The translations under genes were made by a program, and so were the position numbers. A stretch of DNA of 33,493 nucleotides, taken from the IMG/VR virus record IMGVR_UViG_2579779076_000013. One strand, 5' to 3'. The notes beneath the pieces are model-generated. The model saw nothing but the letters and a program-made list of their open reading frames with translations. It searched no databases and had not been told where the DNA came from. Position 1 is the first letter of the stretch. Each line of letters opens with the position of its first letter. Positions 2,377-33,493 of the stretch are shown piece by piece. This stretch comes from a virus (taxonomy: Duplodnaviria > Heunggongvirae > Uroviricota > Caudoviricetes).

Positions 2377-2886
2377 ATGTTTGATTACCAAGTTTCCAAA
2401 CATCCACATTTTGATGAAGCCTGTCGTGCATTCGCACTGCGCCACAACCTGGTGCAACTGGCAGAACGTGCAGGCATGAATGTGCAGATTCTGCGGAACA
2501 AGCTGAACCCAGCTCAACCTCATTTATTAACCGCACCAGAAATCTGGTTGCTTACCGATCTGACTGAAGATTCAACGCTAGTAGATGGTTTTCTGGCTCA
2601 GATTCACTGCCTGCCATGTGTACCGATTAATGAGGTGGCAAAAGAGAAACTGCCACATTACGTCATGAGTGCAACCGCAGAGATCGGGCGTGTTGCTGCA
2701 GGTGCGGTATCTGGCGATGTAAAAACCAGTGCAGGCCGTCGTGATGCTATCAGCAGCATTAACTCTGTAACACGACTGATGGCGTTGGCTGCTGTTTCAT
2801 TGCAGGCCCGTTTACAGGCTAACCCTGCGATGGCGAGTGCAGTTGATACCGTGACTGGCCTCGGTGCTTCATTTGGTTTGCTGTGA
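2377..2886 (+). CDS. CII-like early regulator
   Basis: ORF track 2371 starts at TTG; ATG at 2377 has an AGAGG RBS 8 nt upstream. N-terminus [24 protein letters not shown] resembles 186-type CII as I recall it. Confidence 0.5.
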
Positions 2887-2893
2887 GGTACTT

Positions 2894-3190
2894 ATGCTGA
2901 CGAAAGAACCATCATTTGCATCGCTGCTGGTAAAGCAAAGCCCGGCAATGCACTACGGTCACGGCTGGATCATGGGTGAGGATGGAAAACGCTGGCATCC
3001 ATGTCATTCACAAGATGAATTGCTGTCTGAATTGACCACGAGGAAACGGAGAAAGTCAAAATGTATGCAGCGGAAAGTGAAGTGGTTTATCAGTTTCGTT
3101 ACAGAGGGGAGAGTTATTCAGTACCTGAAGATGATTTGCTCTGTTGTTATCCGTCGTTGTCGGGCGATGGCAGTTACTTTTTCACGCTAA
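2894..3190 (+). CDS. hypothetical early protein (overlaps next ORF in another frame)
   Basis: ATG at 2894 with GAGG RBS. The second half is low-complexity and basic, and the ORF overlaps 3061..3285. Confidence 0.3.
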   Translation: MLTKEPSFASLLVKQSPAMHYGHGWIMGEDGKRWHPCHSQDELLSELTTRKRRKSKCMQRKVKWFISFVTEGRVIQYLKMICSVVIRRCRAMAVTFSR

Positions 3191-3285
3191 AAGATGGGAC
3201 GTTTTTACGGGGAGAGCAGGTTAAAGAGACGATACGAAAAAATGTATCTCCTCTTGAACGTTACCGTAATAACAAACAACGATAG
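3061..3285 (+). CDS. hypothetical early protein (74 aa)
   Basis: GGAG RBS before the ATG; protein-like composition. Confidence 0.45.
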   Translation: MYAAESEVVYQFRYRGESYSVPEDDLLCCYPSLSGDGSYFFTLKDGTFLRGEQVKETIRKNVSPLERYRNNKQR

Positions 3286-3307
3286 TTGCGTTTTGGGGAT
3301 ATGAATT

Positions 3308-3649
3308 ATGGCAATTAATGGCGCTGCGGCGACTGTTCCATTAAGCCCCGGTGAACGCCTGAATGGACTTAATCACATTGCGGAGCTAAGGGCGAAAGTT
3401 TTTGGCCTGAATATTGAGTCAGAGCTTGAGCGGTTTATTAAAGATATGCGTGATCCACGGGATATCAATAATGAACAAAATAAACGGGCACTGGCTGCCA
3501 TATTCTTTATGGCAAAAATTCCAGCTGAACGTCATAGCATCAGCATTAATGAGCTGACCACTGACGAAAAGCGGGAGCTGATTAAAGCAATGAATCATTT
3601 TCGTGCAGTGGTGAGCTTATTTCCCAGACGGCTAACCATGCCGAATTAA
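3308..3649 (+). CDS. hypothetical early protein (113 aa)
   Basis: ORF with GGGGA RBS 9 nt upstream; sits in the early operon. Confidence 0.5.
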   Translation: MAINGAAATVPLSPGERLNGLNHIAELRAKVFGLNIESELERFIKDMRDPRDINNEQNKRALAAIFFMAKIPAERHSISINELTTDEKRELIKAMNHFRAVVSLFPRRLTMPN

Positions 3650-3716
3650 CCAACTAATGAAATTAATGGCGTAAACCCGCCGGGCATCCCTTTATCTAAA
3701 TTCAGGAGAATTGATT

Positions 3717-3950
3717 ATGCGTAATATTGAAACCCTCACGACTAAAACCGGACCGGATGACGCAGGGCTTAATATTTTACTGACAGAGGCTCGTCTGGAA
3801 GAACGCCGGGCAAGGGCTGAAGCAATGGCAGCTCGCCTTGATAGCCTGGCGTGTCATATCTCATCCCGTCAGCTAAACCACGTCGAAGCGGCAGAACTGC
3901 TGCGTGTGACTGCTGAAGCAATCCAGAACGAAGCGCAGGAGATCCACTAA
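3717..3950 (+). CDS. hypothetical early protein
   Basis: ORF track start 3711 is TTG; ATG at 3717 has an AGGAG RBS 8 nt upstream. Stop overlaps the next start (TAATG). Confidence 0.5.
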   Translation: MRNIETLTTKTGPDDAGLNILLTEARLEERRARAEAMAARLDSLACHISSRQLNHVEAAELLRVTAEAIQNEAQEIH

Positions 3951-4177
3951 TGGCTGATGCAATGGATCTCGTACAGCAGCGCGTTGAAGAAGAACGCCAG
4001 CGCCATATCCGTGCTGCCCGTGCCAAAACGCCGGGCGTGTCCCGCGTGCTTTGCGTTGAGTGTGAAGCGCCAATTCCGCCAGCACGCCGCCGTGCCATTC
4101 CGGGTGTGCAGCTTTGCATTACCTGTCAGGAAATCGCAGAGCTGAAAGGCAAACATTACAACGGAGGTGCTGTATGA
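3950..4177 (+). CDS. TraR/DksA-family C4 zinc-finger protein
   Basis: CVECEAPIPPARRRAIPGVQLCITCQ = C-x2-C-x17-C-x2-C; 75 aa; translationally coupled to neighbours. Confidence 0.7.
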   Translation: MADAMDLVQQRVEEERQRHIRAARAKTPGVSRVLCVECEAPIPPARRRAIPGVQLCITCQEIAELKGKHYNGGAV

Positions 4178-5031
4178 GCACCATCCTGAAATGGGCGGGT
4201 AATAAAACCGCCATTATGCCAGAACTGAAAAAATACCTTCCTGCTGGCCCGCGACTGGTTGAACCTTTCGCGGGTTCTTGTGCTGTGATGATAGAGACGG
4301 ATTACCCCAGCTATCTTGTTGCGGATATTAATCCTGATTTAATCAACCTCTATAAAAAGGTTGCTGCTGATTGCGAGGCGTTTATATCTCGTGCCAGAGC
4401 TTTATTTGAGGAAGCAAACAGGGAGGTGGCTTATTACAACATAAGGCAGGAGTTTAATTACTCCACTGAAATTACTGATTTCATGAAAGCGGTATATTTC
4501 CTGTATCTCAATCGTCATGGTTACCGTGGGTTATGTCGCTATAACAAGAGCGGGCATTTCAACATTCCCTATGGGAATTATAAAAATCCGTATTTCCCTG
4601 AAAAAGAAATTCGCAAATTTGCAGAAAAAGCCCAGCGAGCAACGTTTATCTGCGCCAGCTTTGATGAAACGCTGGCGATGTTGAAGGCGGGGGATGTGGT
4701 GTATTGCGATCCGCCTTATTACGGTACGTTTTCCGGCTATCACACTGATGGCTTCACTGAGGATGACCAGTATCACCTGGCATCCGTTCTTGAACATCGA
4801 TCATCTGAAGGTCATCCGGTCATTGTTTCTAACAGTGACACATCCCTGATTCGTTCGCTGTATCGCAATTTCACTCACCACTACATCAAGGCAAAACGCA
4901 GCATCGGCGTGTCGGCTGGCGAGAGTAAATCTGCAACAGAAATCATTGCTGTTTCCGGGGCGCGCTGCTGGGTGGGATTTGATCCTTCGCGTGGCGTAGA
5001 TAGTTCTGCTGTGTACGAGGTGCGTGTATGA
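4174..5031 (+). CDS. dam: DNA adenine (N6) methyltransferase, Dam-like
   Basis: ATG at 4174 (GGAGG RBS) overlaps the upstream stop. Motif I FAGSCAV and motif IV DPPY ([12 protein letters not shown]). N-terminus [11 protein letters not shown] is typical of Dam. Confidence 0.85.
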
Positions 5032-7442
5032 GTCATGACGATATGAGCAACTCTAGCGGCTTTAACGAGGCCGCCGCATCATTTTCATGGAACGGCCCGA
5101 AAAAGGCCATTAACCCTTATCTGGACCCGGCGGAAGTTGCGCCGGAGTCTGCACTTTCAAACCTGATCACTCTGTATGCTGCCGATAACGAGCAGGAACA
5201 ACTGCGCCGCGAGGCACTGAGTGAGCAGGTCTGGGAGCGTTATTTCTTTAATGAATCCCGTGATCCTGTCCAGCGCGAAATGGAGCAGGATAAGCTCATT
5301 AGCCGGGCAAAGCTGGCGCATGAGCAGCAGCGTTTTAATCCAGACATGGTCATTCTGGCTGACGTCAACGCCCAGCCTTCCCATATCAGCAAGCCGCTGA
5401 TGCAACGTATTGAATACTTCAGCAGCCTGGGCAGGCCAAAGGCTTATTCCCGCTATTTGCGTGAGACGATTAAGCCATGTCTGGAACGGCTGGAGCATAT
5501 ACGCGACAGTCAGCTATCCACTTCTTTTCGCTTTATGGCGAGCCATGAAGGGCTGGACGGCCTGCTGATCCTGCCTGAAATGAGTCAGGATCAGGTGAAA
5601 CGCCTGTCCACCCTGGTAGCTGCGCATATGAGCATGTGCCTTGATGCAGCTTGTGGCGATTTGTATGCCACCGATGACGTTAAGCCAGAAGAAATCCGCA
5701 AGACATGGGAAAGGGTGGCAGCAGAAACCCTGCGACTGGATGTCATCCCACCTGCGTTTGAGCAACTCCGCCGGAAAAGAAACCGCCGTAAACCCGTGCC
5801 CTATGAACTCATTCCGGGTTCGCTAGCGCGTATGTTGTGCGCCGACTGGTGGTACCGGAAATTATGGAAGATGCGTTGCGAATGGCGGGAAGAGCAGTTG
5901 CGCGCTGTCTGCCTGGTCAGCAAAAAAGCATCTCCCTATGTCAGCTATGAAGCCGTGATGCATAAACGTGAGCAGCGCCGTAAGTCGCTGGAGTTTTTTC
6001 GTTCTCATGAACTGGTGAACGAAGACGGCGACACGCTGGATATGGAAGACGTGGTAAACGCCAGCAGCAGCAACCCTGCACATCGCCGCAATGAGATGAT
6101 GGCCTGTGTTAAAGGTCTGGAGCTTATCGCGGAAATGCGCGGTGACTGCGCCGTTTTCTACACCATCACCTGTCCGTCACGTTTCCATTCCACGCTCAAT
6201 AACGGCAGACCAAACCCAACCTGGACAAATGCGACGGTAAGACAAAGCAGCGATTATCTGGTCGGCATGTTTGCTGCATTTCGTAAGGCGATGCACAAAG
6301 CCGGGTTGCGCTGGTATGGCGTGCGGGTGGCTGAGCCGCATCATGACGGTACGGTTCACTGGCACCTGTTGTGTTTCATGCGCAAAAAAGACCGCCGTGC
6401 CATTACTGCATTGTTGTGTAAGTTTGCCATCCGTGAAGACCGCGAGGAACTGGGTAATAACACTGGTCCACGCTTTAAATCTGAGCTGATAAACCCGCGC
6501 AAAGGAACACCGACAAGCTACATCGCGAAATACATTAGTAAGAACATTGACGGGCGTGGTCTGGCTGGCGAGATCAGCAAGGAAACGGGTAAATCCCTGC
6601 GTGATAACGCTGAATACGTTAATGCCTGGGCGTCTCTGCATCGTGTTCAGCAATTCCGCTTCTTTGGTATTCCGGGGCGTCAGGCTTACCGTGAACTGCG
6701 ATTGCTGGCTGGTCAGGCGGCAAGGCAACAGGGTGACAAAAAAGCAGGTGCGCCGGTACTGGATAACCCGCGCCTTGATGCCATCCTGGCTGCTGCTGAT
6801 GCTGGTTGTTTTGCCACTTACATCATGAAGCAGGGTGGCGTACTGGTTCCCCGCAAATATCACCTCATCAGAACTGCTTATGAAATTAACGAAGAGCCGA
6901 CCGCCTATGGCGATCACGGCATTCGTATTTATGGCATCTGGTCACCCATTGCAGAGGGCAAGATCTGCACTCATGCAGTGAAGTGGAAAATGGTTCGTAA
7001 AGCCGTTGACGTTCAGGAGGCGGTAGCCGACCAGGGCGCTTGCGCCCCTTGGACTCGTGGCAATAACTGTCCCCTTGCTGAAAATTTGAACCAACAGGAG
7101 AAAGATAAATCAGCTGATGGGGACCCCAGAACGGACATTACCAGCATGGATGACAAGGAGTTGCACGATTACCTGCACAGTATGAGCAAAAAAGAGCGCC
7201 GGGAACTGGCAGCAAGGTTACGCCTGGTGAAACCGAAACGGCGTAAAGACTACAAACAGCGAATTACAGACCATCAGCGACTGCAGCTCGTGTATGAGCT
7301 GAAGTCCAGAGGATTTGATGGCAGCGAGAAAGAGGTCGATTTACTCCTTCGCGGAGGCAGTATTCCGTCAGGAGCAGGCCTGCGTATCTTCTATCGGAAC
7401 CAGCGTTTGCAGGAAGATGATCAGTGGCGGAACCTGTATTAA
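5028..7442 (+). CDS. A: replication initiation endonuclease gpA (HUH rolling-circle initiator)
   Basis: 804-aa ORF coupled to dam (ATGA overlap). HUH-type motif VHWHLLCF. Size and position match P2/186 gene A. Confidence 0.9.
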
Positions 7443-8311: not shown

Positions 8312-10081
8312 ATGGCTGAACTTGCGTCACAACCAACATCTATTCAATCTATTTATAACTGGTATATTGATAACAGACTCTTTGTTAATAGGAGATATCA
8401 ACGTAAATTAGTTTGGACATTAATTGAAAAGCAAAAGCTTGTAGATTCGATTTTGAAAAAATATCCAGTACCAGCAATACTTATTGCTGAAAGAGAAGGT
8501 TCCCCTGGTACGTATGAAATAATTGATGGTTTACAGCGTCTCCACGCCATTATGTCGTTTATAGAAACTTCTTATACGACCATTGATGGTAAAATATTCA
8601 ATCTTCAATTTTTCCCAACAGCTCAAACAAGAGCAGATGAAGGTTTTTTTGAGCCTGACATACAATCCGAAGTAATTTCGCAACGAGATGTGGGAACGTT
8701 TCTTGATTATCCATTAGCTTTGTCTGTGATGCGAAATGCTACTGAAAATGAGATCAATGATGTTTTTGATAGAATTAACTCGTATGGTCACAGACTTAGC
8801 GATCAAGAAAGAAGACAGTCAGGGGTGGAAAACAGTTTTTCAACAATGGTTAGAAATATTTCCTGTTCGATTCGAGGTGATGTTTCAAGTGATATATTAC
8901 CCCTTCGTGATATGCCATCCATTAGTATCGACTTGCCTTTAACCAGGCACGGGTATTCAGTTAAGGCTGATGATGTATTCTGGGTTAAACATGGCGTTTT
9001 GCGTTCAACTGATCTAAGAGACAGTATGGATGAGCAATGTATAGCTGATATTGCTGCTTGTGTAATATTAGGTGAGCCTATTGAAAGATCAAAGGTTGCG
9101 CTTGATAGGATTTATGATCAATCTCGTCCAGAATATATTCAGCTTAACTCTGCGCTTGAGGTTTATGGAGATACTAAGTTTATTGAAGAGTTTAAGTATT
9201 GTCTCGATGAAATTATTAAAGTCTGTGAAAATGGTACTTTCATAAAATTAAGGGAGTTGATTTTCCCCGATGCAAATAATAATGCATATCCATCTGTTTT
9301 TTCGATTTTATTCTTATCTTTCTATGAGTTGATTGTCGGCGAAAATAAAAAAGTGGCTAATTATTCTGAACTAAGGAACCGAATGAATAATATTGTCGAT
9401 AGAATTAATATAGGACGAAGAGCAGGAAGCGTTGATGAACGAAGAGCAAATATCGATGCTGTAAAAGGTTTGATTGGTGTATCTTTTGTGGTTTCTGATG
9501 AACCTCTACCTATTTATGAAAACCATACCGGCATGGACATAGAGAATTATATTAGAAGGTCTGAAGTGGAATTGGCTAACTATGAGTTAAAGCAGGGGAT
9601 GTTGAACTTAAATAATTCGAGAACATTGAATCAAGATGTTGTGCACAGAATTATTAATACTATATGTGCAATAGCTAATAATGGGAAAGGGACGCTCGGA
9701 AAAATTATCATTGGTGTTGCTGATGATGACCATGATGCAGAGAGAGTAAGACAGTTAGATCGTATTGAACCAAAACGAGTTGGTTTAAAAAACGTTGTAG
9801 GTGTTTCAAGAGAAGCTAGAGCGCTCGGTATTACTAATGAAGAGTATTTAACTCGGTGGGTCAATGCTATTCAAAATTCAGAGTTATCAGAGCCACTGAA
9901 AAGTAATGTTTTGTCAAAGATAGACTATAATGATTTTTATGGATTAGGGGTCATCGTTATTACGGTACCTCCCCAACAATCGATTTCCGCGGTAGGTCAA
10001 GATATTTATTGGCGAGAAGCTGATAAAACAACCTTAGCTCATGGCTTACAAATAGCGACAATAGCTACTAGATTTAGTTAA
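8312..10081 (+). CDS. DUF262/ParB-like N-terminal domain protein with C-terminal Schlafen/AlbA_2-like domain; candidate anti-phage defence cargo
   Basis: 589-aa ORF with AGAGGA RBS. N-terminal DGQQR-type motif (YEIIDGLQRLHAI) after a basic RRYQRK segment. C-terminal motif SEVELANYELK...ICAIANNGKGTLGKIIIGVADDD resembles the AlbA_2/Schlafen signature. No HxxP/HNH (DUF1524) motif seen. Visibly AT-rich. Confidence 0.8.
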   Translation: MAELASQPTSIQSIYNWYIDNRLFVNRRYQRKLVWTLIEKQKLVDSILKKYPVPAILIAEREGSPGTYEIIDGLQRLHAIMSFIETSYTTIDGKIFNLQFFPTAQTRADEGFFEPDIQSEVISQRDVGTFLDYPLALSVMRNATENEINDVFDRINSYGHRLSDQERRQSGVENSFSTMVRNISCSIRGDVSSDILPLRDMPSISIDLPLTRHGYSVKADDVFWVKHGVLRSTDLRDSMDEQCIADIAACVILGEPIERSKVALDRIYDQSRPEYIQLNSALEVYGDTKFIEEFKYCLDEIIKVCENGTFIKLRELIFPDANNNAYPSVFSILFLSFYELIVGENKKVANYSELRNRMNNIVDRINIGRRAGSVDERRANIDAVKGLIGVSFVVSDEPLPIYENHTGMDIENYIRRSEVELANYELKQGMLNLNNSRTLNQDVVHRIINTICAIANNGKGTLGKIIIGVADDDHDAERVRQLDRIEPKRVGLKNVVGVSREARALGITNEEYLTRWVNAIQNSELSEPLKSNVLSKIDYNDFYGLGVIVITVPPQQSISAVGQDIYWREADKTTLAHGLQIATIATRFS

Positions 10082-17660: not shown

Positions 17661-18054
17661 AGCGGTGCCTTATGTCCGCAATAACCCGGACAAACTGCAT
17701 CTGTTTGTGGATAACGGTTCGCTGGTTGCCACGGGGGCCAGCTCCATGTCATGGGAGTACCGCTACACCCTGAACGTGGTGATTGAGGATTTCAGCGGCG
17801 ACCAGAATCTGCTGATGGCCCCGGTTTTGCTGTGGTTGCGGGATAACCAGCCCGATGCCATCAATAACCCGGCGTTACGGGAAAAGCTATTCACCTTTGA
17901 GGTGGATATTCTGCGCAACGATGTCTGTGATATCAGCCTTAACCTGCAACTGACGGAGCGTGTGCTGGTCAGCACTGACGGCAGTGTGTCGAACGTTGAA
18001 GCGGTAGCGGAACCTGATGAACCTGAAGAAATGTGGACGGTGAAACGTGGCTGA
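17623..18054 (+). CDS. R: tail completion protein gpR
   Basis: GTG at 17623 with AGGAG RBS is preferred over the track's ATG at 17602. Conserved YTLNVVIEDFSGD region. Confidence 0.75.
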   Translation: MNKPQSLRHALNKAVPYVRNNPDKLHLFVDNGSLVATGASSMSWEYRYTLNVVIEDFSGDQNLLMAPVLLWLRDNQPDAINNPALREKLFTFEVDILRNDVCDISLNLQLTERVLVSTDGSVSNVEAVAEPDEPEEMWTVKRG

Positions 18055-18493
18055 ACTGCAGAAGGTGGACGACTGGCTGAGTGCATTATTGGCGAATCTG
18101 GAGCCAGCCGCAAGAAGCCGCATGATGCGCCAGCTGGCGCAGGAACTGCGCCGGACACAGCAGCAGAACATCAGGATGCAGCGCAATCCAGATGGCAGCA
18201 GTTATGAGCCGCGCAGGGTAACAGCACGCAGCAAAAAGGGGCGCATCAAACGTCAGATGTTTGCGAAGCTGCGCACCACAAAATACCTGAAAACTGCCGC
18301 CAGCGCCGACTCTGCCAGCGTGCAGTTTGAAGGCAAGGTGCAGCGCATTGCCCGCGTTCATCACTACGGCCTGCGTGATCGCGTCAGTCGCAAAGGACCT
18401 GAGGTCCGTTATGCAGAGCGTCGTTTGTTAGGGGGGAATGATGAAGTAGAAACTCGAACTAGGAATATCCTAGTTCGATGGCTTATAAGTTAG
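18047..18493 (+). CDS. S: tail completion / virion morphogenesis protein gpS
   Basis: 148 aa at the P2 S position. The 3' end runs into AT-rich sequence and a hairpin. Confidence 0.8.
   Translation: MAELQKVDDWLSALLANLEPAARSRMMRQLAQELRRTQQQNIRMQRNPDGSSYEPRRVTARSKKGRIKRQMFAKLRTTKYLKTAASADSASVQFEGKVQRIARVHHYGLRDRVSRKGPEVRYAERRLLGGNDEVETRTRNILVRWLIS
18454..18478. repeat. perfect 11-bp inverted repeat with 3-nt loop at the S / moron convergent junction
   Basis: TCGAACTAGGA-ata-TCCTAGTTCGA, read directly from the sequence. Confidence 0.5.
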
Positions 18494-19149
18494 CTCTTAT
18501 TTTTGGATGAGCGTAAAAGACTCATTAATTCTATGATGATTTTTTCTTGAAGTAGATTGGGGGTTTTTTCGAAACTTACATTGTGTTCACGTAATGTTTG
18601 AATGATTTTGCCGAACTCATCAGTATCACCTTGCGATAGTAAGAATGCAATTCTCTGGTTGTCATAGTCGTTGCTCATTTGCATGTTGTATTTAATGAAC
18701 ACAATAAATAACCGAAGTATATATCCAGTGAATAATATTCCAGATAAGATTAGTAAATAAGGTGCCGCGGTTTCAATGGCTTTTTCAAAGGTGCTTTTAG
18801 TATTTAGGTATGTTGAATTAATACCTGATTCATTTTTTTTGATTATCGGGTTTGAATTTTTTGAAGCGTTGAGGTTTTCTGATGCTTGTGCAAGTTTATC
18901 AGTTAACTGTTGCATGATGGTGAACTTTTCGAAAGCAGATTCTATTTGCTGAGAGCTCAATCTAAGTGAGGCAAGTGCATTGTCACGCTTATTACTTTCT
19001 GCTTTATAAAAAATATAAGTTGCAGGAATGCAGAGTACAGCAGTTAATAAAATATATAAAAATAAGAGCGTAGTAATTTTAGAGCGGCTAGCTCGTTTTT
19101 CCATTGTTTTCAATATTTCGTTATATTTTTGTTCGTCAAGAACCATCAT
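18490..19149 (-). CDS. two-transmembrane membrane protein (antisense AT-rich moron between S and V)
   Basis: ORF track 18490..19251; the internal ATG at 19149 (AAGGA upstream) is preferred because the longer form overlaps the V start. Two TM segments (ITTLLFLYILLTAVLCIPATYIFY, AAPYLLILSGILFTGYILRLFIVFI) flank a roughly 100-aa Ser/Asn/Lys-rich region. Confidence 0.6.
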   Translation of the reverse strand: MMVLDEQKYNEILKTMEKRASRSKITTLLFLYILLTAVLCIPATYIFYKAESNKRDNALASLRLSSQQIESAFEKFTIMQQLTDKLAQASENLNASKNSNPIIKKNESGINSTYLNTKSTFEKAIETAAPYLLILSGILFTGYILRLFIVFIKYNMQMSNDYDNQRIAFLLSQGDTDEFGKIIQTLREHNVSFEKTPNLLQEKIIIELMSLLRSSKNKS

Positions 19150-19241
19150 CTTAAATTTTATCCTTGGAAGATACATTGTGCCATTTATAGCACAATGTAC
19201 CTGATCTACCGTAGAAGTCGATAATTCATCATCCTTAGTAG

Positions 19242-19820
19242 ATGAACGCACAACTAACAGAAATCATGCGCCTTATCACCAACCTGATCCGCACAGGGGT
19301 AGTCACCGAAGTGGACCGGGAAAACTGGCTTTGCCGGGTGAAAACGGGCGAGCTTGAAACCAACTGGATCAGCTGGCTGACGCTGCGTGCCGGGAATGCC
19401 CGCACATGGTGGCGACCATCGGAAGGTGAGCAGGTGGTGGTGCTGAGTCTGGGAGGCAATCTGGAAACTGCCTTTGCGTTGCCCGCTGTCTATTCGAATC
19501 AGTTCGCGCCACCTTCGACGTCGGCGGACGCCTGCGTGACAGAACATCCTGACGGTGGCTGGTTTGAATACGAACCCGCCACCGGGCGCTGGTATGTCAG
19601 GGGCATCAAATCCATGGTCATTGAGGCTGCCGACAACATCACCCTGAAAACCAGTGAGTTTGTGCTGGAGGCTGACCGCACGCGTATTAACAGCGAAGTA
19701 GTGATCAATGGTGGCGTTATCCAGGGCGGCGGTGCAATGAGTTCTAACGGAATTGTGGTTGATGCACATCAGCATACTGGCGTCCTGAAAGGCGGCGATA
19801 CAACCGGAGGCCCGGTATGA
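19242..19820 (+). CDS. V: baseplate spike protein gpV
   Basis: 192 aa with strong resemblance to P2 gpV (TWWRPSEGEQVVVLSLGGNLETAFALP..., SSNGIVVDAHQHTG). Confidence 0.9.
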   Translation: MNAQLTEIMRLITNLIRTGVVTEVDRENWLCRVKTGELETNWISWLTLRAGNARTWWRPSEGEQVVVLSLGGNLETAFALPAVYSNQFAPPSTSADACVTEHPDGGWFEYEPATGRWYVRGIKSMVIEAADNITLKTSEFVLEADRTRINSEVVINGGVIQGGGAMSSNGIVVDAHQHTGVLKGGDTTGGPV

Positions 19821-21071: not shown

Positions 21072-21669
21072 TCTGCTGCCACCGGGTTCAACTTCACTGG
21101 AGCGCCGACTGGCGCAAACCTGTAGCGGGATTTCTGATCTGCAGGTGCCGCTGCGTGACTTGTGGAATCCGGCTACCTGTCCGGTCAGCTTCCTGCCTTA
21201 TCTCGCTTGGGCGTTCTCTGTGGATCGCTGGGACGAGGGCTGGACAGAAAGCGTCAAACGCCAGGTAGTGAAGGATGCTTTTTATATTCATCAGCATAAA
21301 GGAACCACCAGTGCCGTGCGGCGGGTGGTGGAACCGTTCGGATTCCTGATCCGCATTATTGAGTGGTGGCAGACCGGGGAAACACCGGGCACGTTTCGCC
21401 TGGATATCGGCGTGCAGGACCAGGGCATCACTGAAGATACCTATCTGGAACTTGAGCGGCTGATAAGCGATGCCAAACCATGTAGCCGTCACATGATCGG
21501 CATGTCCATCAATCTGCAGACCAGCGGTCCGCATTGGGTGGGGGCCGCCAGCTATCTTGGCGAAGAAATCACGATCTATCCGTATATCAACGAAACAATT
21601 ATTTCCGGCGGCACCGCGCATGAAGGCGGGGCGGTCCATGTTATTGACACAATGAGAGTGAATCCATGA
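21064..21669 (+). CDS. I: baseplate protein gpI
   Basis: 201 aa, coupled to J and H. Confidence 0.85.
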   Translation: MNSLLPPGSTSLERRLAQTCSGISDLQVPLRDLWNPATCPVSFLPYLAWAFSVDRWDEGWTESVKRQVVKDAFYIHQHKGTTSAVRRVVEPFGFLIRIIEWWQTGETPGTFRLDIGVQDQGITEDTYLELERLISDAKPCSRHMIGMSINLQTSGPHWVGAASYLGEEITIYPYINETIISGGTAHEGGAVHVIDTMRVNP

Positions 21670-22745
21670 GCACAAAATTTTATACCCTGCTGACGGATAT
21701 TGGCGCGGCGAAACTTGCCAGCGCCGCCGCGCTCGGTGTGCCTTTAAAAATTACCCATATGGCGGTCGGCGATGGCGGCGGAACATTGCCAACGCCGGAC
21801 GCAAAGCAGACAGCATTGGTAAATGAGAAACGCCGGGCTGCGCTGAATATGCTCTATATCGAACCGCAGAACAGCAGCCAGATTATTGCTGAACAGGTGA
21901 TCCCTGAAAACGAGGGCGGTTGGTGGATACGTGAAGTGGGCCTGTTTGATGAATCCGGGGCATTGATTGCCGTGGGCAACTGCCCGGAAAGCTATAAGCC
22001 GCAACTGGCTGAAGGCAGCGGGCGCACCCAGACCGTGCGCATGGTGCTGATTACCAGCAGTACGGACAATATCACCCTGAAAATCGACCCTGCTGTAGTG
22101 CTGGCAACCCGCAAGTATGTGGATGACAAGGCACTGGAGCTGAAGGTGTACGTGGATGACCTGATGGCAAAACATCTTGCTGCACCGGACCCGCATTCAC
22201 AGTATGCACAGAAAGAAAGTCCGGCGTTTACCGGGACACCAAAAGCGCCAACGCCAGCGGCGGGGAATAATACTACGCAGCTTGCGACCACCGCGTTTGT
22301 TCAGGCGGCACTGACAGCCCTTATTAATGGTGCGCCAGCCACACTGGACACACTGAAAGAAATAGCCGCAGCCATTAACAATGATCCGAAATTCAGTACC
22401 ACCATTAACAATGCGCTGGCACAAAAAGCGCCGCTGTCGAGTCCTGCACTCACCGGAACGCCAACAGCACCTACTGCGGCACAGTCGGTCAACAATACAC
22501 AGATTGCCACTACAGCTTTTGTGAAATCGGCGATTGCAGCAATGGTGGGGTCTGCACCTGCGGCACTGGATACATTGAACGAACTGGCAGCGGCGCTGGG
22601 GAATGACCCGAACTTTGCCACGACAATGCTTAATGCGCTGGCAGGTAAACAACCGCTGGACAATACGCTGACTAATTTGAGTGGAAAGGATGTAGCTGGT
22701 CTTCTCGCATACCTTCGTTTAAGAAAATGCAGAGGTAACAGCTAA
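21666..22745 (+). CDS. H: tail fibre protein gpH, apparently the constant N-terminal part only (likely truncated)
   Basis: 359 aa with two copies of a fibre repeat (ATTAFVQAALTALINGAPATLDTLKEIAAAINNDPKF / ATTAFVKSAIAAMVGSAPAALDTLNELAAALGNDPNF). Ends ...LSGKDVAGLLAYL then RLRKCRGNS-stop, exactly at a hix/gix-like site. Confidence 0.7.
   Translation: MSTKFYTLLTDIGAAKLASAAALGVPLKITHMAVGDGGGTLPTPDAKQTALVNEKRRAALNMLYIEPQNSSQIIAEQVIPENEGGWWIREVGLFDESGALIAVGNCPESYKPQLAEGSGRTQTVRMVLITSSTDNITLKIDPAVVLATRKYVDDKALELKVYVDDLMAKHLAAPDPHSQYAQKESPAFTGTPKAPTPAAGNNTTQLATTAFVQAALTALINGAPATLDTLKEIAAAINNDPKFSTTINNALAQKAPLSSPALTGTPTAPTAAQSVNNTQIATTAFVKSAIAAMVGSAPAALDTLNELAAALGNDPNFATTMLNALAGKQPLDNTLTNLSGKDVAGLLAYLRLRKCRGNS
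22702..22727. other. hix/gix-like 26-bp recombination site (single copy)
   Basis: TTCTCGCATACC-TT-CGTTTAAGAAAA matches my recollection of hixL at 17/26 and gix at 15/26 positions. Sits at the 3' end of H, just upstream of the invertase gene. Confidence 0.35.
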
Positions 22746-22782
22746 CTGGCATCATCTCCGGTTTTTATTCAGGGGGATGATC

Positions 22783-23349
22783 ATGCTTATTGGCTATGTA
22801 CGCGTGTCAACAAATGACCAGAACACCGATTTGCAACGTAATGCACTGAACTGCGCGGGATGTGAGCGGATTTTTGAGGACAAAATCAGTGGCACTAAGT
22901 CCGACAGACCGGGGCTGAAAAAACTACTCAGGACACTATCGGCAGGAGACACGCTGGTTGTCTGGAAGCTGGACAGGTTAGGGCGCAGTATGCGGCATCT
23001 TGTTACGCTGATAGAAGAGTTGCGCCAGCGTGGCGTGAATTTCCGAAGCCTGACTGACAGTATTGATACCAGTACCCCAATGGGCCGTTTCTTTTTTCAT
23101 GTCATGGGTGCCCTGGCTGAAATGGAACGCGAACTGATAGTTGAACGTACCAGGGCAGGGCTGGCTGCAGCTCGTGTTAAAGGCAGAGTAGGTGGACGCC
23201 GTCCTAAGTTGACCAGCGAACAGTGGGCACAGATTGGGCGTTTACTCAAGGCCGGAGAATCAAGACAGCGTATTGCACTGATTTTTGATGTAGGCGTTTC
23301 TACCATTTATCGAAAATTTCCGGCAAATAAGAGCAATGAATCTCCCTGA
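22783..23349 (+). CDS. serine DNA invertase (Gin/Cin/Pin/Hin family)
   Basis: MLIGYVRVSTNDQNTDLQRNAL...TLVVWKLDRLGRSM...GRFFFHVMGALAEMERELIVERT is near-identical in pattern to Gin/Hin. C-terminal HTH. GGGGG RBS 6 nt upstream of ATG 22783. Confidence 0.9.
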   Translation: MLIGYVRVSTNDQNTDLQRNALNCAGCERIFEDKISGTKSDRPGLKKLLRTLSAGDTLVVWKLDRLGRSMRHLVTLIEELRQRGVNFRSLTDSIDTSTPMGRFFFHVMGALAEMERELIVERTRAGLAAARVKGRVGGRRPKLTSEQWAQIGRLLKAGESRQRIALIFDVGVSTIYRKFPANKSNESP

Positions 23350-30873: not shown

Positions 30874-32559
30874 TTATCCTAATCCTGGCCATACCATGAC
30901 GATGATTGTCCCTGCCAGCGTCAGCAGGACGTTGGCGATTGCGTAGGTGCCCGCATAGCCCAGCGCAGGGATGTTACTGCGAGCTGTATCACTGATGATC
31001 TCCATTGCCGGCGCGCAGGTGCGTGCGCCCATCATTGCGCCGAACAACAGTGCGCGGTTCATTCGCAATACATAAGCACCGAACAAGAAACAGATAACCA
31101 CGGGCACAAGACTGACAATTAATCCGGCAATCAACATCTGACCGCCAATCGCGCCCAGGCCGTTATTAATACCGCTACCGGCGCTCAGACCAACGCCTGC
31201 CATAAACACCATCAAGCCGAACTCTTTCACCATGCTTAATGCACCTTGCGGAATGTAACCGAAGGTCGGGTGGTTAGCACGCATAAAGCCCAGCATAATT
31301 CCGGCGAATAACAACCCGGCAGCGTTCCCCATGCCGAAACTGAATGTGCTGAACTGGAAGGTGATCATCCCGATCATCAGCCCAATAACAAAGAAGGCGC
31401 AAAATGCCAGCAGGTCAGTGACCTGGCTGTGAATCGAGATAAAGCCGATGCGATCGGCGATGGTTTTTACGCGACGGGCATCACCGCTGACTTGTAAAAC
31501 GTCACCTTTGTTAAGCACGACGTTGTCATCTATCGGCATCTCAATCTGGCTACGAATGACGCGGTTAAGGAAGCAACCGTGATCGGTCAACTTCAGTTGT
31601 GCGAGACGTTTACCTACAGCGTTATGGTTTTTAACGACCACTTCTTCAGTGACGATACGCATGTCGAGAAGGTCACGATCGAAAACTTCTTTACCGTTAC
31701 GGAAGCTGGGATCGAGTCGGGCATGGGCGTCGGGATAGCCTACCAACGCTATTTCATCGCCCATTTGTAGCACGGCATCACCGTCTGGATTTGCCAGAAT
31801 CCCGTTACGTCGAATACGTTCAATGTAGCAGCCGGTTTGTCGATAAATACCCAGTTCACGCAGATTTTTGCCGTCGGTCCAGGCCACCAGCTCCGGGCCG
31901 ACGCGATAGGCGCGGATCACCGGTAAATAAACCTTACGGTTGGCATCAGTGTCCAGGCCACGTTCGCGGGCGATTTGCTGGGCGCTGGTCTGTAAGTCCT
32001 GATGCTGCAATTTCGGCAAGTAACGCGCACCAACAATCAAACTCACCAGACCGATTAAATAGGTTAAGGCATACCCGAGGCTCAGATTATCCAGTGCCAG
32101 TGAGAGCTGCCTGCTTTCCATGCCGGAATGACGCAGTGTATCGCCAGCACCGACCAGAACCGGTGTCGACGTCATAGAGCCTGCTAACATACCGGCCGTC
32201 AGGCCAATATCCCAGCCAAACAGCTTACCTAACCCTAAGGCGATCACCAGCGCACTGCCAACCATCACCAGTGCTAACATTAGGTAATTTTTCCCATCGC
32301 GAAAAAAAATGGAAAAAAAGTTCGGTCCGGCTTCGACCCCGACGCAGAAAATAAACAGCATAAAGCCAAGATTAAGCGCATCGGTGTTAATGCTGAAATG
32401 TTGTTGGCCTAATAACAGCGATACGACTAAAACGCCAATGGAATTACCCAGTTGGATCGAACCAAGTCGTAACTTTCCGAGACATAGCCCAAGCGCGAGG
32501 ACCACAAATAATAACAGAATGTAATTCCCATTTAACAATTCGGCGACGTTTATATTCAC
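30874..32559 (-). CDS. ybjL: YbjL putative transporter (AAE/YidE family)
   Basis: 561 aa, recognised as E. coli YbjL ([20 protein letters not shown]...); GTG start. Confidence 0.85.
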
Positions 32560-32828
32560 GGAGGCTAACTTCTTGTTTACTAGTAAGCTGTTGAAAGAAA
32601 TGGTAATTTACGATAATGTTTTTTACCAGAATTCAGGGCGCAGATTCATTCAGCGCACCTAAACGATAGTAAAGTAACAATATATTTTACTAGTGTAATC
32701 ACATTAGGTATCAACGGCTATATGAATTGCGTTGGCCTATATTAGCATGGAATGCGAAGCGGCTTTATCTTACTGAACGCCACACTGGCGAAAAATGTGT
32801 TCGATAGACGCAGTGTCAGGAGGAACGA

Positions 32829-33206
32829 GTGAAACATAAACAACGTTGGGCGGGGGCAATCTGCTGTTTTGTCCTCTTCATTGTGGTGTGCCTTTTTCTG
32901 GCGACGCACATGAAAGGCGCTTTTCGGGCTGCCGGGCATCCTGAAATCGGCTTGCTATTTTTCATTCTTCCTGGAGCAGTCGCCAGCTTCTTTTCACAGC
33001 GTAGAGAAGTCCTGAAACCTCTATTTGGCGCAATGCTGGCGGCACCCTGTTCAATGCTCATTATGCGGCTGTTTTTTTCACCGACGCGCTCATTCTGGCA
33101 AGAGCTGGCATGGTTACTAAGCGCGGTGTTCTGGTGTGCGCTGGGGGCACTGTGTTTCTTATTTATCAGTAGTTTGTTTAAACCACAGCACAGAAAAAAT
33201 CAGTAA
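32829..33206 (+). CDS. ybjM: inner membrane protein YbjM
   Basis: 125-aa multi-TM protein between ybjL and grxA, as in E. coli K-12 gene order. Confidence 0.7.
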   Translation: MKHKQRWAGAICCFVLFIVVCLFLATHMKGAFRAAGHPEIGLLFFILPGAVASFFSQRREVLKPLFGAMLAAPCSMLIMRLFFSPTRSFWQELAWLLSAVFWCALGALCFLFISSLFKPQHRKNQ

Positions 33207-33226
33207 AGCCCTCAACGCGAGGGCTT
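33206..33226. terminator. bidirectional hairpin between ybjM and grxA
   Basis: AAGCCCTC-aacgc-GAGGGCTT stem-loop. Confidence 0.4.
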
Positions 33227-33235
33227 GTCAGACGA

Positions 33236-33493
33236 TCAGGCGTCCAGATTTTCTTTCACCCATGCAGCAAAATCGGTATAGCCGCCGATATGTTGCTGAT
33301 CGACAAAAATCTGCGGCACGGTTTCTACGGGTTTACCTGCCTTTTGTTGTAGATCTTCTTTAGTGATCCCTTCCGCACGAATATCTACATACTGATACTG
33401 AAAATCATCGCGTTCATTGCTCAATTTCTCAGCCAGATCTTTTGCACGCACACAGTAAGGGCAACCCGAACGACCAAAAATAACGGTTTGCAT
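33236..33493 (-). CDS. grxA: glutaredoxin 1
   Basis: 85 aa, MQTVIFGRSGCPYCVRAKDLAEKL with the CPYC active site; start codon at the window end. Confidence 0.9.
   Translation of the reverse strand: MQTVIFGRSGCPYCVRAKDLAEKLSNERDDFQYQYVDIRAEGITKEDLQQKAGKPVETVPQIFVDQQHIGGYTDFAAWVKENLDA

Follow-up and report, generated by a model that had tools for sequence, protein, structure and literature searches.

We analysed a window of 33,493 nucleotides of phage DNA (IMG/VR record IMGVR_UViG_2579779076_000013) and found that an antisense gene, or moron, lies between its tail genes S and V and encodes a 219-residue protein with two transmembrane segments (TMs). This gene is almost certainly a horizontally acquired accessory cassette at the P2 orf30 locus, and its product a real, maintained inner-membrane protein. 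From sequence and setting, we put the chance that the protein is an anti-phage factor of some kind slightly above even. The narrower proposal, that it is an envelope-level (superinfection) exclusion protein expressed from the prophage, is favoured here tentatively, at appreciably less than even chances. What is new is an uncharacterised protein family; the antisense accessory cassette at the P2 orf30 hotspot is of an already known kind.

The window consists of a 186/P2-like prophage plus host flank. The identical region in Escherichia coli EC21Z-137 is annotated as integrase, CI, CII, Fil, replication endonuclease, portal and onwards to ogr, and then ybjL. The moron coding sequence (CDS) occupies 18490..19149 on the minus strand, from ATG 19149-19147 to TAA 18492-18490. 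On its flanks we found, both on the plus strand, gene S (18047..18493; tail completion or virion morphogenesis; Phage_tail_S, Pfam 9e-41) and gene V (19242..19820), which encodes the baseplate spike, is the first gene of the V operon and matches Phage_base_V plus Apex. The S stop codon, TAG at 18491-18493, overlaps that of the moron. The maximal open reading frame (ORF) has 253 codons from GTG 19251 (18490..19251, minus strand), and at its upstream end it runs over the start codon of V (19242), which is on the opposite strand. We take ATG 19149 to be the true start, giving a product of 219 residues, because 15 homologues start at the equivalent residue, the NCBI annotation of an identical copy is a 660-bp CDS, and a Shine-Dalgarno sequence, AAGGA (19161..19165, minus strand), lies 11 nt upstream. 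The upstream extension of the maximal ORF (19150..19251, minus strand) is not expected to be translated; it holds the 5' signals of the moron and the region of the divergent V promoter (P_V). One database entry begins at an in-frame ATG at 19176 (228 residues), a start that was rejected because homologues do not conserve it. From the S stop to the V start the GC content is 33.3%, compared with 58% in S and 57% in V, and at this composition the probability of 219 stop-free codons is about 7e-8. ORF map, homologue starts, NCBI CDS, Pfam matches and base composition bear out what a first-pass annotation of the window had described: a minus-strand ORF of about 219 residues, in AT-rich DNA, between plus-strand S and V.

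Alignment with Escherichia phage 500465-1, which has no cassette, revealed an AT-rich replacement module at 18447..19241. Homology between the two stops near 18446 and restarts at the V ATG; the S-V gap of that phage is 68 bp. The module comprises the last ~16 codons of S in recoded form, the moron, and the entire S-V intergenic region with the control elements of P_V. The recoded S codons (18447-18493) are AT-rich (36% GC) and contain the terminator hairpin of the moron, and the peptide that they encode stays S-like (…EVETRTRNILVRWLIS versus …DVEAMTRDMILQWLAG), which places a recombination breakpoint inside S. As the moron is absent from 500465-1 and other phages that are otherwise near-identical (flanks ~96% identical), it is dispensable.

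Next, we considered the architecture of the protein. Kyte-Doolittle means exceed 2.2 in 19-residue windows at residues 25-47 (TM1) and 131-153 (TM2). These leave an N-terminus of 24 residues (1-24) with KRASRSK immediately before TM1, a loop of 83 residues (48-130) composed to 48% of S/N/K/T/Q, and a C-terminal tail of 66 residues (154-219). Hydropathy together with the positive-inside rule predicts that the N-terminus is inside, the loop periplasmic and the tail cytoplasmic. A periplasmic loop is further supported by the peptidoglycan-hydrolase fragments found in the loops of some relatives: members from lambdoid prophages carry MepS residues 33-94 there (NF008096, 3e-18), and partial NlpC/P60 hits were obtained for five of 70 members. 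No such fragment is present in the window protein. In P0118 (residues 94-155; L026-L028, 6001-6750) the copied stretch comes from the N-terminal part of MepS, a murein endopeptidase of the host, and stops just before the catalytic Cys, and the loops of other members retain a GDLVFF...VGIYLG fragment of NlpC/P60. In the AlphaFold model the protein forms a helical hairpin in which the N-terminus contacts the C-terminus. The two hydropathy peaks agree with the two-transmembrane protein proposed in the first-pass annotation, and its order of N-terminus, TM1, loop, TM2 and C-terminal domain stands, with a loop of 83 rather than about 100 residues. That loop is Ser/Asn/Lys-rich as described; its 'probably coiled' character is seen only as a low-confidence helical hairpin in the model.

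The protein is under purifying selection, which is distributed unevenly along its length. Comparing the window allele with those of two homologue loci (L010 and L008), we found 16-26% identity in the loop and 66-67% in TM2 plus tail; the ratio of nonsynonymous to synonymous divergence (dN/dS) was 0.1-0.6 and 0.03-0.12, respectively. Across 25 diverse members the residues R19, F151, Y154, Y162, Q165, P197, E202 and K203 are invariant, all of them on the predicted cytoplasmic side, and a juxtamembrane module F-x-[KR]-Y...Y..Q...S.G...K.P....EK is conserved. The loops of members vary in length, the shortest having about 70 residues and the longest over 250. No homologue has a broken reading frame.

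A search of 5.8 billion proteins returned 19 clusters, all called 'hypothetical', from E. coli, Enterobacter and Klebsiella. With a profile, 98 of 1.84 billion representatives were found at E <= 1e-3, and 27 at E <= 1e-10. The window allele occurs in 7 of 5,426 complete E. coli genomes, all copies being 100% identical. A scan of a genome collection with a derived pattern, which was too narrow, gave 7 candidates and 1 relative (Serratia). In IMG/VR, the homologues lie at the S/V junction in 19/19 loci, antisense and in low-GC DNA, so that the co-occurrence in other P2-like phages that had been suggested as a check is indeed found; identity among these homologues spans 33-100%, being as low as 33-48% to the protein of the window, against 70-100% for the S and V proteins beside them. 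Distant relatives are likewise single, AT-rich genes in accessory positions. They were found antisense between KilA-N and RusA genes in the nin region of a lambdoid prophage (L026-L028), adjoining the integrase at a prophage end (L029, L032, L114), after the tail-fibre chaperone of another P2-like phage, which is a tail-fibre hotspot (L031), and between HNH genes near terminase and KAP NTPase (L030). Others lie in a Paraburkholderia island with RnlA/RnlB, Cap4 nuclease, HNH and TniQ (L024, L025), or between a CAP12-PCTIR TIR protein and a SEFIR/TIR_2 protein (L115). In every context read the gene stands alone, with no sensor or nucleotide-signal partner adjoining. In four Klebsiella prophages (L008, L009, L012 and L016, about 2700-5600), copies of (lysB')-R-S flank the moron on both sides, a tandem duplication of the O operon end around the cassette in which the activator dyad described below stays on the moron side.

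The insertion point is itself informative. P2 carries a nonessential antisense membrane-protein gene, orf30, at the S/V junction, and the orf30 locus is among three sites of horizontally acquired genes (PMC3091744); a Burkholderia phage has a DNA methylase in the S/V slot (PMC13366799). Recent hotspot studies stress gpA-gpQ, Z/fun and tail-CI and place defence genes 'within the tail genes', leaving S/V unresolved. We present the junction in two IMG/VR samples, namely the 80 loci with S closest to the window's (L033-L112) and 66 Klebsiella-centred loci (within L117-L185), the S match lying at about 3501-3944 in each sampled locus. The numbers are plain counts, from samples that may include redundant phages. 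Among the 80, 76 junctions were empty, 2 held this gene, 1 held the PADLOC candidate PDC-S59 (1.9e-197) and 1 held a DUF6216 membrane protein (L037), for which homology to the moron protein was tested and rejected.

For P2-like phages of the Klebsiella type, the S/V junction has the character of a defence hotspot. There, 45 of 66 junctions were occupied, by cargo of 29-41% GC that was antisense in 41 of the 45. PADLOC recognised the cargo of 13: Septu in four (PtuA 2e-140, PtuB 3e-74), AbiU-like and PDC-S31 in two each, and ApeA-like, SIR2 (LmuA/ThsA-like), PDC-S59, PDC-M28C-like and PDC-S66-like in one each. The two-TM family of the window protein occupied five junctions, other small membrane proteins without a hit 13 and soluble proteins of unknown function 12, and two had no ORF of >= 50 codons. 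The small membrane proteins without hits belong to at least four unrelated families.

The candidate promoter of the moron lies among the control elements of P_V. A perfect 8-bp inverted repeat, CATTGTGC-N8-GCACAATG, was found at 19174..19197. It contains TGT-N12-ACA (19177-19194), and its centre lies 56.5 nt upstream of the V ATG; in P2 the centre of the site annotated 'activator binding site; activation of pV promoter' is 55.5 nt away from V. TGT-N12-ACA at about -55 is an established feature of P2 late promoters. Given the geometry of the P2 site and the ogr/Delta-like protein that the prophage encodes, we infer that this dyad is the Ogr/B-type late-activator site of P_V. On the moron strand, the spacer of the dyad (19192-19184) reads TGcTATAAA, a match to the extended -10 consensus, and this candidate promoter (19184..19192, minus strand) would start transcription near 19176-19178. 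The observation suggests that moron promoter and activator site overlap. The TGCTATAAA/TGTTATAAA of the candidate -10 is kept in the diverged alleles of L008-L012 and L015, and TG-n-TATAAA is also kept where the duplication has parted the moron from V. A consensus promoter scan proposed another weak candidate (19184..19155). Canonical activation of the moron by the late activator was rejected, as the standard -55 geometry puts the transcription start inside the CDS. Downstream, 12 nt past the moron stop codon and within the last codons of S, we found a terminator-like hairpin (18454..18478, minus strand) with an 11-bp stem, a 3-nt loop and a T-rich tract after it (RNA fold: centroid -15.9 kcal/mol, z = -4.2). 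No RNA family of Rfam matched either strand of 18300-19400. Shine-Dalgarno sequence, terminator and candidate promoter support, at the level of sequence, an independently signalled moron. In P2, about 20 nt separate the start of orf30 (L003, 1690-1830) from the P_V activator site as annotated, and the gene's Shine-Dalgarno sequence, AAGGAG, is strong; as this start, too, is near that site, packing of the cargo start closely against the late-activator site seems to be a general trait of the S/V hotspot.

We found no named family for the protein, and the first-pass annotation had recognised none: Pfam, NCBIfam, PADLOC and the PDB gave no match, and only the PHROG group phrog_2611 did (E = 5.3e-29; residues 40-244 of the long ORF, profile positions 4-216 of 230). 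As this group is unannotated ('unknown function'), membership adds no functional information. Two sub-threshold Pfam candidates were treated as compositional, namely DUF3112, a fungal membrane family (21.5 bits, cut-off 23.3; 2 of 70 relatives match), and DUF2999 (E = 0.11). The NCBIfam search of the window protein gave no match, and the Pfam SLATT and 2TM-effector families had no hit in it or in the 70 relatives. Among the relatives searched with PADLOC, P0115, P0118 and P0045 gave none and P0020 a single weak unrelated hit. A likeness in topology to Wzz/PCP proteins is superficial, the loop having only 83 residues, and there was no Pfam or NCBIfam hit to them. A literature search found no paper mentioning WP_000989498 or PDC-S59.

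Taken together, these features led us to the following model of envelope-level exclusion. In the lysogen, the moron would be transcribed leftwards from its own promoter. Because the candidate promoter lies within the late-activator site of the divergent P_V, binding of the activator in the lytic phase would occlude it, and we propose that the moron is shut off late in infection. The product would be inserted with its N-terminus in the cytoplasm, followed by TM1, a periplasmic helical hairpin of ~83 residues, TM2 and a cytoplasmic tail of ~66 residues that may pack against the N-terminus. It would shield the lysogen by disturbing the delivery of phage genomes across the periplasm and inner membrane. 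The fast-evolving hairpin would set specificity, and the conserved juxtamembrane cytoplasmic module would provide a common function in anchoring, oligomerisation or host contact. Several observations point to an anti-phage role at the envelope. It is a single small protein in which no domain is that of an enzyme. Its fast-evolving part is predicted to face the compartment through which entering genomes pass. In several phage lineages the gene is found again at positions typical of morons or defence genes, and bona fide defence systems use the slot in which it lies. P22 SieA offers a precedent in both gene placement and a conserved cytoplasmic motif after a TM. Genes that run antisense to lytic operons are typically accessory (PMC7067206).

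Other observations weigh against this model. PADLOC-DB v2.0.0 gave 0 hits at E <= 1 for the window protein, its sequence-profile and fold searches against the PDB had no match, and homology to SieA was rejected (hhalign probability 2.25%, over 14 columns). Since it is the cytoplasmic part that is conserved, a sensor or effector of abortive infection would fit equally well, and where relatives lie in chromosomal defence islands they look more like effectors of abortive infection than like exclusion proteins directed at particular phages. No positive selection could be demonstrated in the loop, with synonymous divergence saturated or counts too small. The AlphaFold models are of low confidence (predicted local distance difference test, pLDDT, 63-69). 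Location is weak evidence, since sixteen further junctions have other uncharacterised small membrane proteins or no clear ORF, and 12 have soluble unknowns. The moron promoter is a consensus match only, and its conservation cannot be told apart from that of the activator dyad. Finally, DNA of 33% GC in E. coli is likely a target of H-NS, so the moron may be silent. The first-pass annotation had pointed to an exclusion, abortive-infection or other conversion factor; co-occurrence at S/V and the defence genes of the hotspot give this contextual support. The gene matches no known defence model. That the site is the P2 orf30 locus, and that the cassette overlaps the P_V activator site, goes beyond what the first-pass annotation had noted.

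A wider version of the exclusion model is more doubtful still. The window protein could be one of the founders of a superfamily, unrecognised so far, of two-TM anti-phage proteins that stand alone, built from the conserved module and a hypervariable hairpin. Such a superfamily would comprise ~100 clusters at 50% identity, from Enterobacteriaceae to Burkholderiaceae, and would move as a single-gene cassette between chromosomal defence islands and prophage hotspots of at least five kinds. The conserved module would serve the shared function, and the periplasmic hairpin, which includes a captured piece of MepS in some members, would decide which phages are halted at the inner membrane or before it, in the periplasm. 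As a corollary, S/V (orf30) would be a defence hotspot of its own in P2-like phages, with many small uncharacterised membrane proteins.

The main rival reading, which we consider unlikely, is that the protein acts by abortive infection instead, with a cytoplasmic module that senses a phage product or process and an infected lysogen that dies before progeny release. The two-TM hairpin would then oligomerise and depolarise or permeabilise the inner membrane, or trigger premature lysis. Such a function fits the finding that all conserved residues are cytoplasmic or juxtamembrane, as well as the company of relatives in chromosomal islands, beside RnlAB, the Cap4 nuclease and TIR proteins. Furthermore, the S/V hotspot also holds the abortive-type AbiU-like and Septu systems, and transmembrane proteins are treated as suicide effectors in defence work (PMC9122126). 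However, the gene is always alone, without a sensor or signal-generating partner, and the cytoplasmic part is only about 90 residues long and has no recognisable domain. SLATT, 2TM-effector and PADLOC searches gave no hits, and abortive infection leaves the hypervariable, length-variable periplasmic loop and the captured hydrolase fragments unexplained.

A low probability was also assigned to lysogenic conversion outside defence, in which the protein would alter envelope physiology for the benefit of the host, as lambda bor/lom-type morons do. Stress tolerance, peptidoglycan remodelling, colicin or antibiotic susceptibility and colonisation are examples. An antisense moron with its own signals is what such a role would look like, and the MepS or NlpC/P60 fragments in the loops of some relatives hint at contact with cell-wall machinery, although the window protein carries none. 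Many other S/V cargo genes are small membrane proteins without a defence signature, and P2 Orf30, too, has no known function. On the other hand, the hosts range from Enterobacteriaceae to Paraburkholderia and the gene lies repeatedly beside defence genes, which argues against a niche-specific virulence role.

Much less probable is a role in the cycle of the phage itself, either in the timing or inhibition of lysis or in regulation of P_V and the end of the O operon, the protein then being secondary. The candidate promoter inside the P_V activator dyad, the terminator hairpin inside the 3' end of S and the lysis cassette immediately upstream would be in line with it. However, most close relatives do without the gene (76/80 junctions empty), unrelated cargo fills the same slot, the family is present outside P2-like phages and the protein sequence is strongly constrained. 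Holins and antiholins are small (about 70-150 residues) and encoded within the lysis cassette, in the same orientation. The moron lies on the strand opposite the lysis genes, with R and S in between, and its product, of 219 residues with an 83-residue loop, is far larger than class II holins and has no hit to the holin families of Pfam; a holin or antiholin was therefore rejected. The idea of a non-functional or decaying ORF, a passive passenger in a recombination-prone junction, might draw on the rarity of the window allele (only 7 of the 5,426 E. coli genomes) and on the apparent loss of the distal part of the tail-fibre gene, but its probability is negligible, as it is essentially refuted by dN/dS of 0.03-0.12 across alleles with saturated synonymous divergence and also faces a frame intact in every homologue, 98 cluster representatives in the profile search and a stop-free frame that is very improbable at 33% GC.

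Other parts of the window were also informative about the prophage. The host genes ybjL and ybjM come after the ogr-like gene (30874-33493), so that the window takes in the right-hand end of the prophage together with the attachment site. In the tail-fibre region (21666-23349), gene H encodes only 359 residues, ends at 22745 and is directly followed by a serine invertase gene (22777-23349). A related E. coli prophage (L004) has an extra 2.2 kb at this place, with the H C-terminus, the chaperone G and a family-9 glycosyltransferase. The sequence of the H/invertase junction resembles an invertase crossover site, and the prophage may lack a functional tail-fibre tip. The gpA-gpQ hotspot (8312-10081, plus strand) encodes a 589-residue protein with GmrSD_N (1e-20) and Schlafen AlbA_2 domains, for which PADLOC gave hits to NsnA (8.6e-26) and PD-T4-2_A (6.8e-16); it is likely a defence gene.

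In E. coli, Klebsiella and Salmonella, P2-like prophages count among the chief vehicles of anti-phage genes. Systematic defence work has focused on the gpA-gpQ and Z/fun hotspots, and the moron points to the older orf30 locus, whose Klebsiella-type slot is occupied in about two thirds of cases and includes small-membrane-protein families outside the defence catalogues. The finding would not surprise a specialist. If the two-TM family does exclude phages, it represents a new single-gene mechanism at the envelope. It would then offer a compact means of mapping the passage of contractile-tailed or other phages across the inner membrane, and would bear on phage therapy directed at lysogens of E. 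coli and Klebsiella. Otherwise, it is one more uncharacterised moron.

The moron can be compared with several known systems. The defence cargo of the S/V junction (Septu PtuAB, AbiU-like, ApeA-like, SIR2 and PDC-S59/S31) shares its insertion point and is also almost always antisense and of 29-41% GC. This cargo consists of soluble enzymes or ATPases with recognised defence models, and no such model fits the window protein. HK97 gp15 and T4 Imm and Sp are small inner-membrane proteins, produced by a prophage or early in an infection, which halt entering genomes at the envelope. Their sizes and topologies differ from those of the window protein, and the likeness is one of description. T4 Sp acts on a virion lysozyme, which the loops that some family members have derived from hydrolases parallel conceptually.

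Like the moron, sieA of P22 encodes a small prophage inner-membrane protein and lies antisense directly after a virion or ejection gene; it has its own promoter, for which the moron has a candidate. SieA types are less than 30% identical, yet share a cytoplasmic FxRYPxEAxxFNK after the last TM (PMC10883804), and F-[IM]-[KR]-Y after TM2 is its counterpart in the window family. The FGRY of SieA (L113, 1337-1831) aligns with FIKY within residues 142-155 of the window protein, a stretch too short to be significant. SieA has 162-164 residues, three or four TMs and no long periplasmic loop (PMC10883804), compared with 219 residues and two TMs here. The block of DNA injection by SieA has been shown experimentally, whereas the exclusion role of the window protein is a proposal.

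The closest counterpart in position is P2 Orf30 (NP_046770). Its function could not be found in the literature, and homology to the window protein was rejected (BLASTP E = 0.86, hhalign probability 0.9%). Orf30 has 261 residues against 219, and the sequences suggest a differing number of hydrophobic segments. The two genes nevertheless share the S/V locus, the antisense orientation, AT-rich DNA and a predicted membrane-protein product, and each has its start codon a few tens of nucleotides from the P_V activator site.

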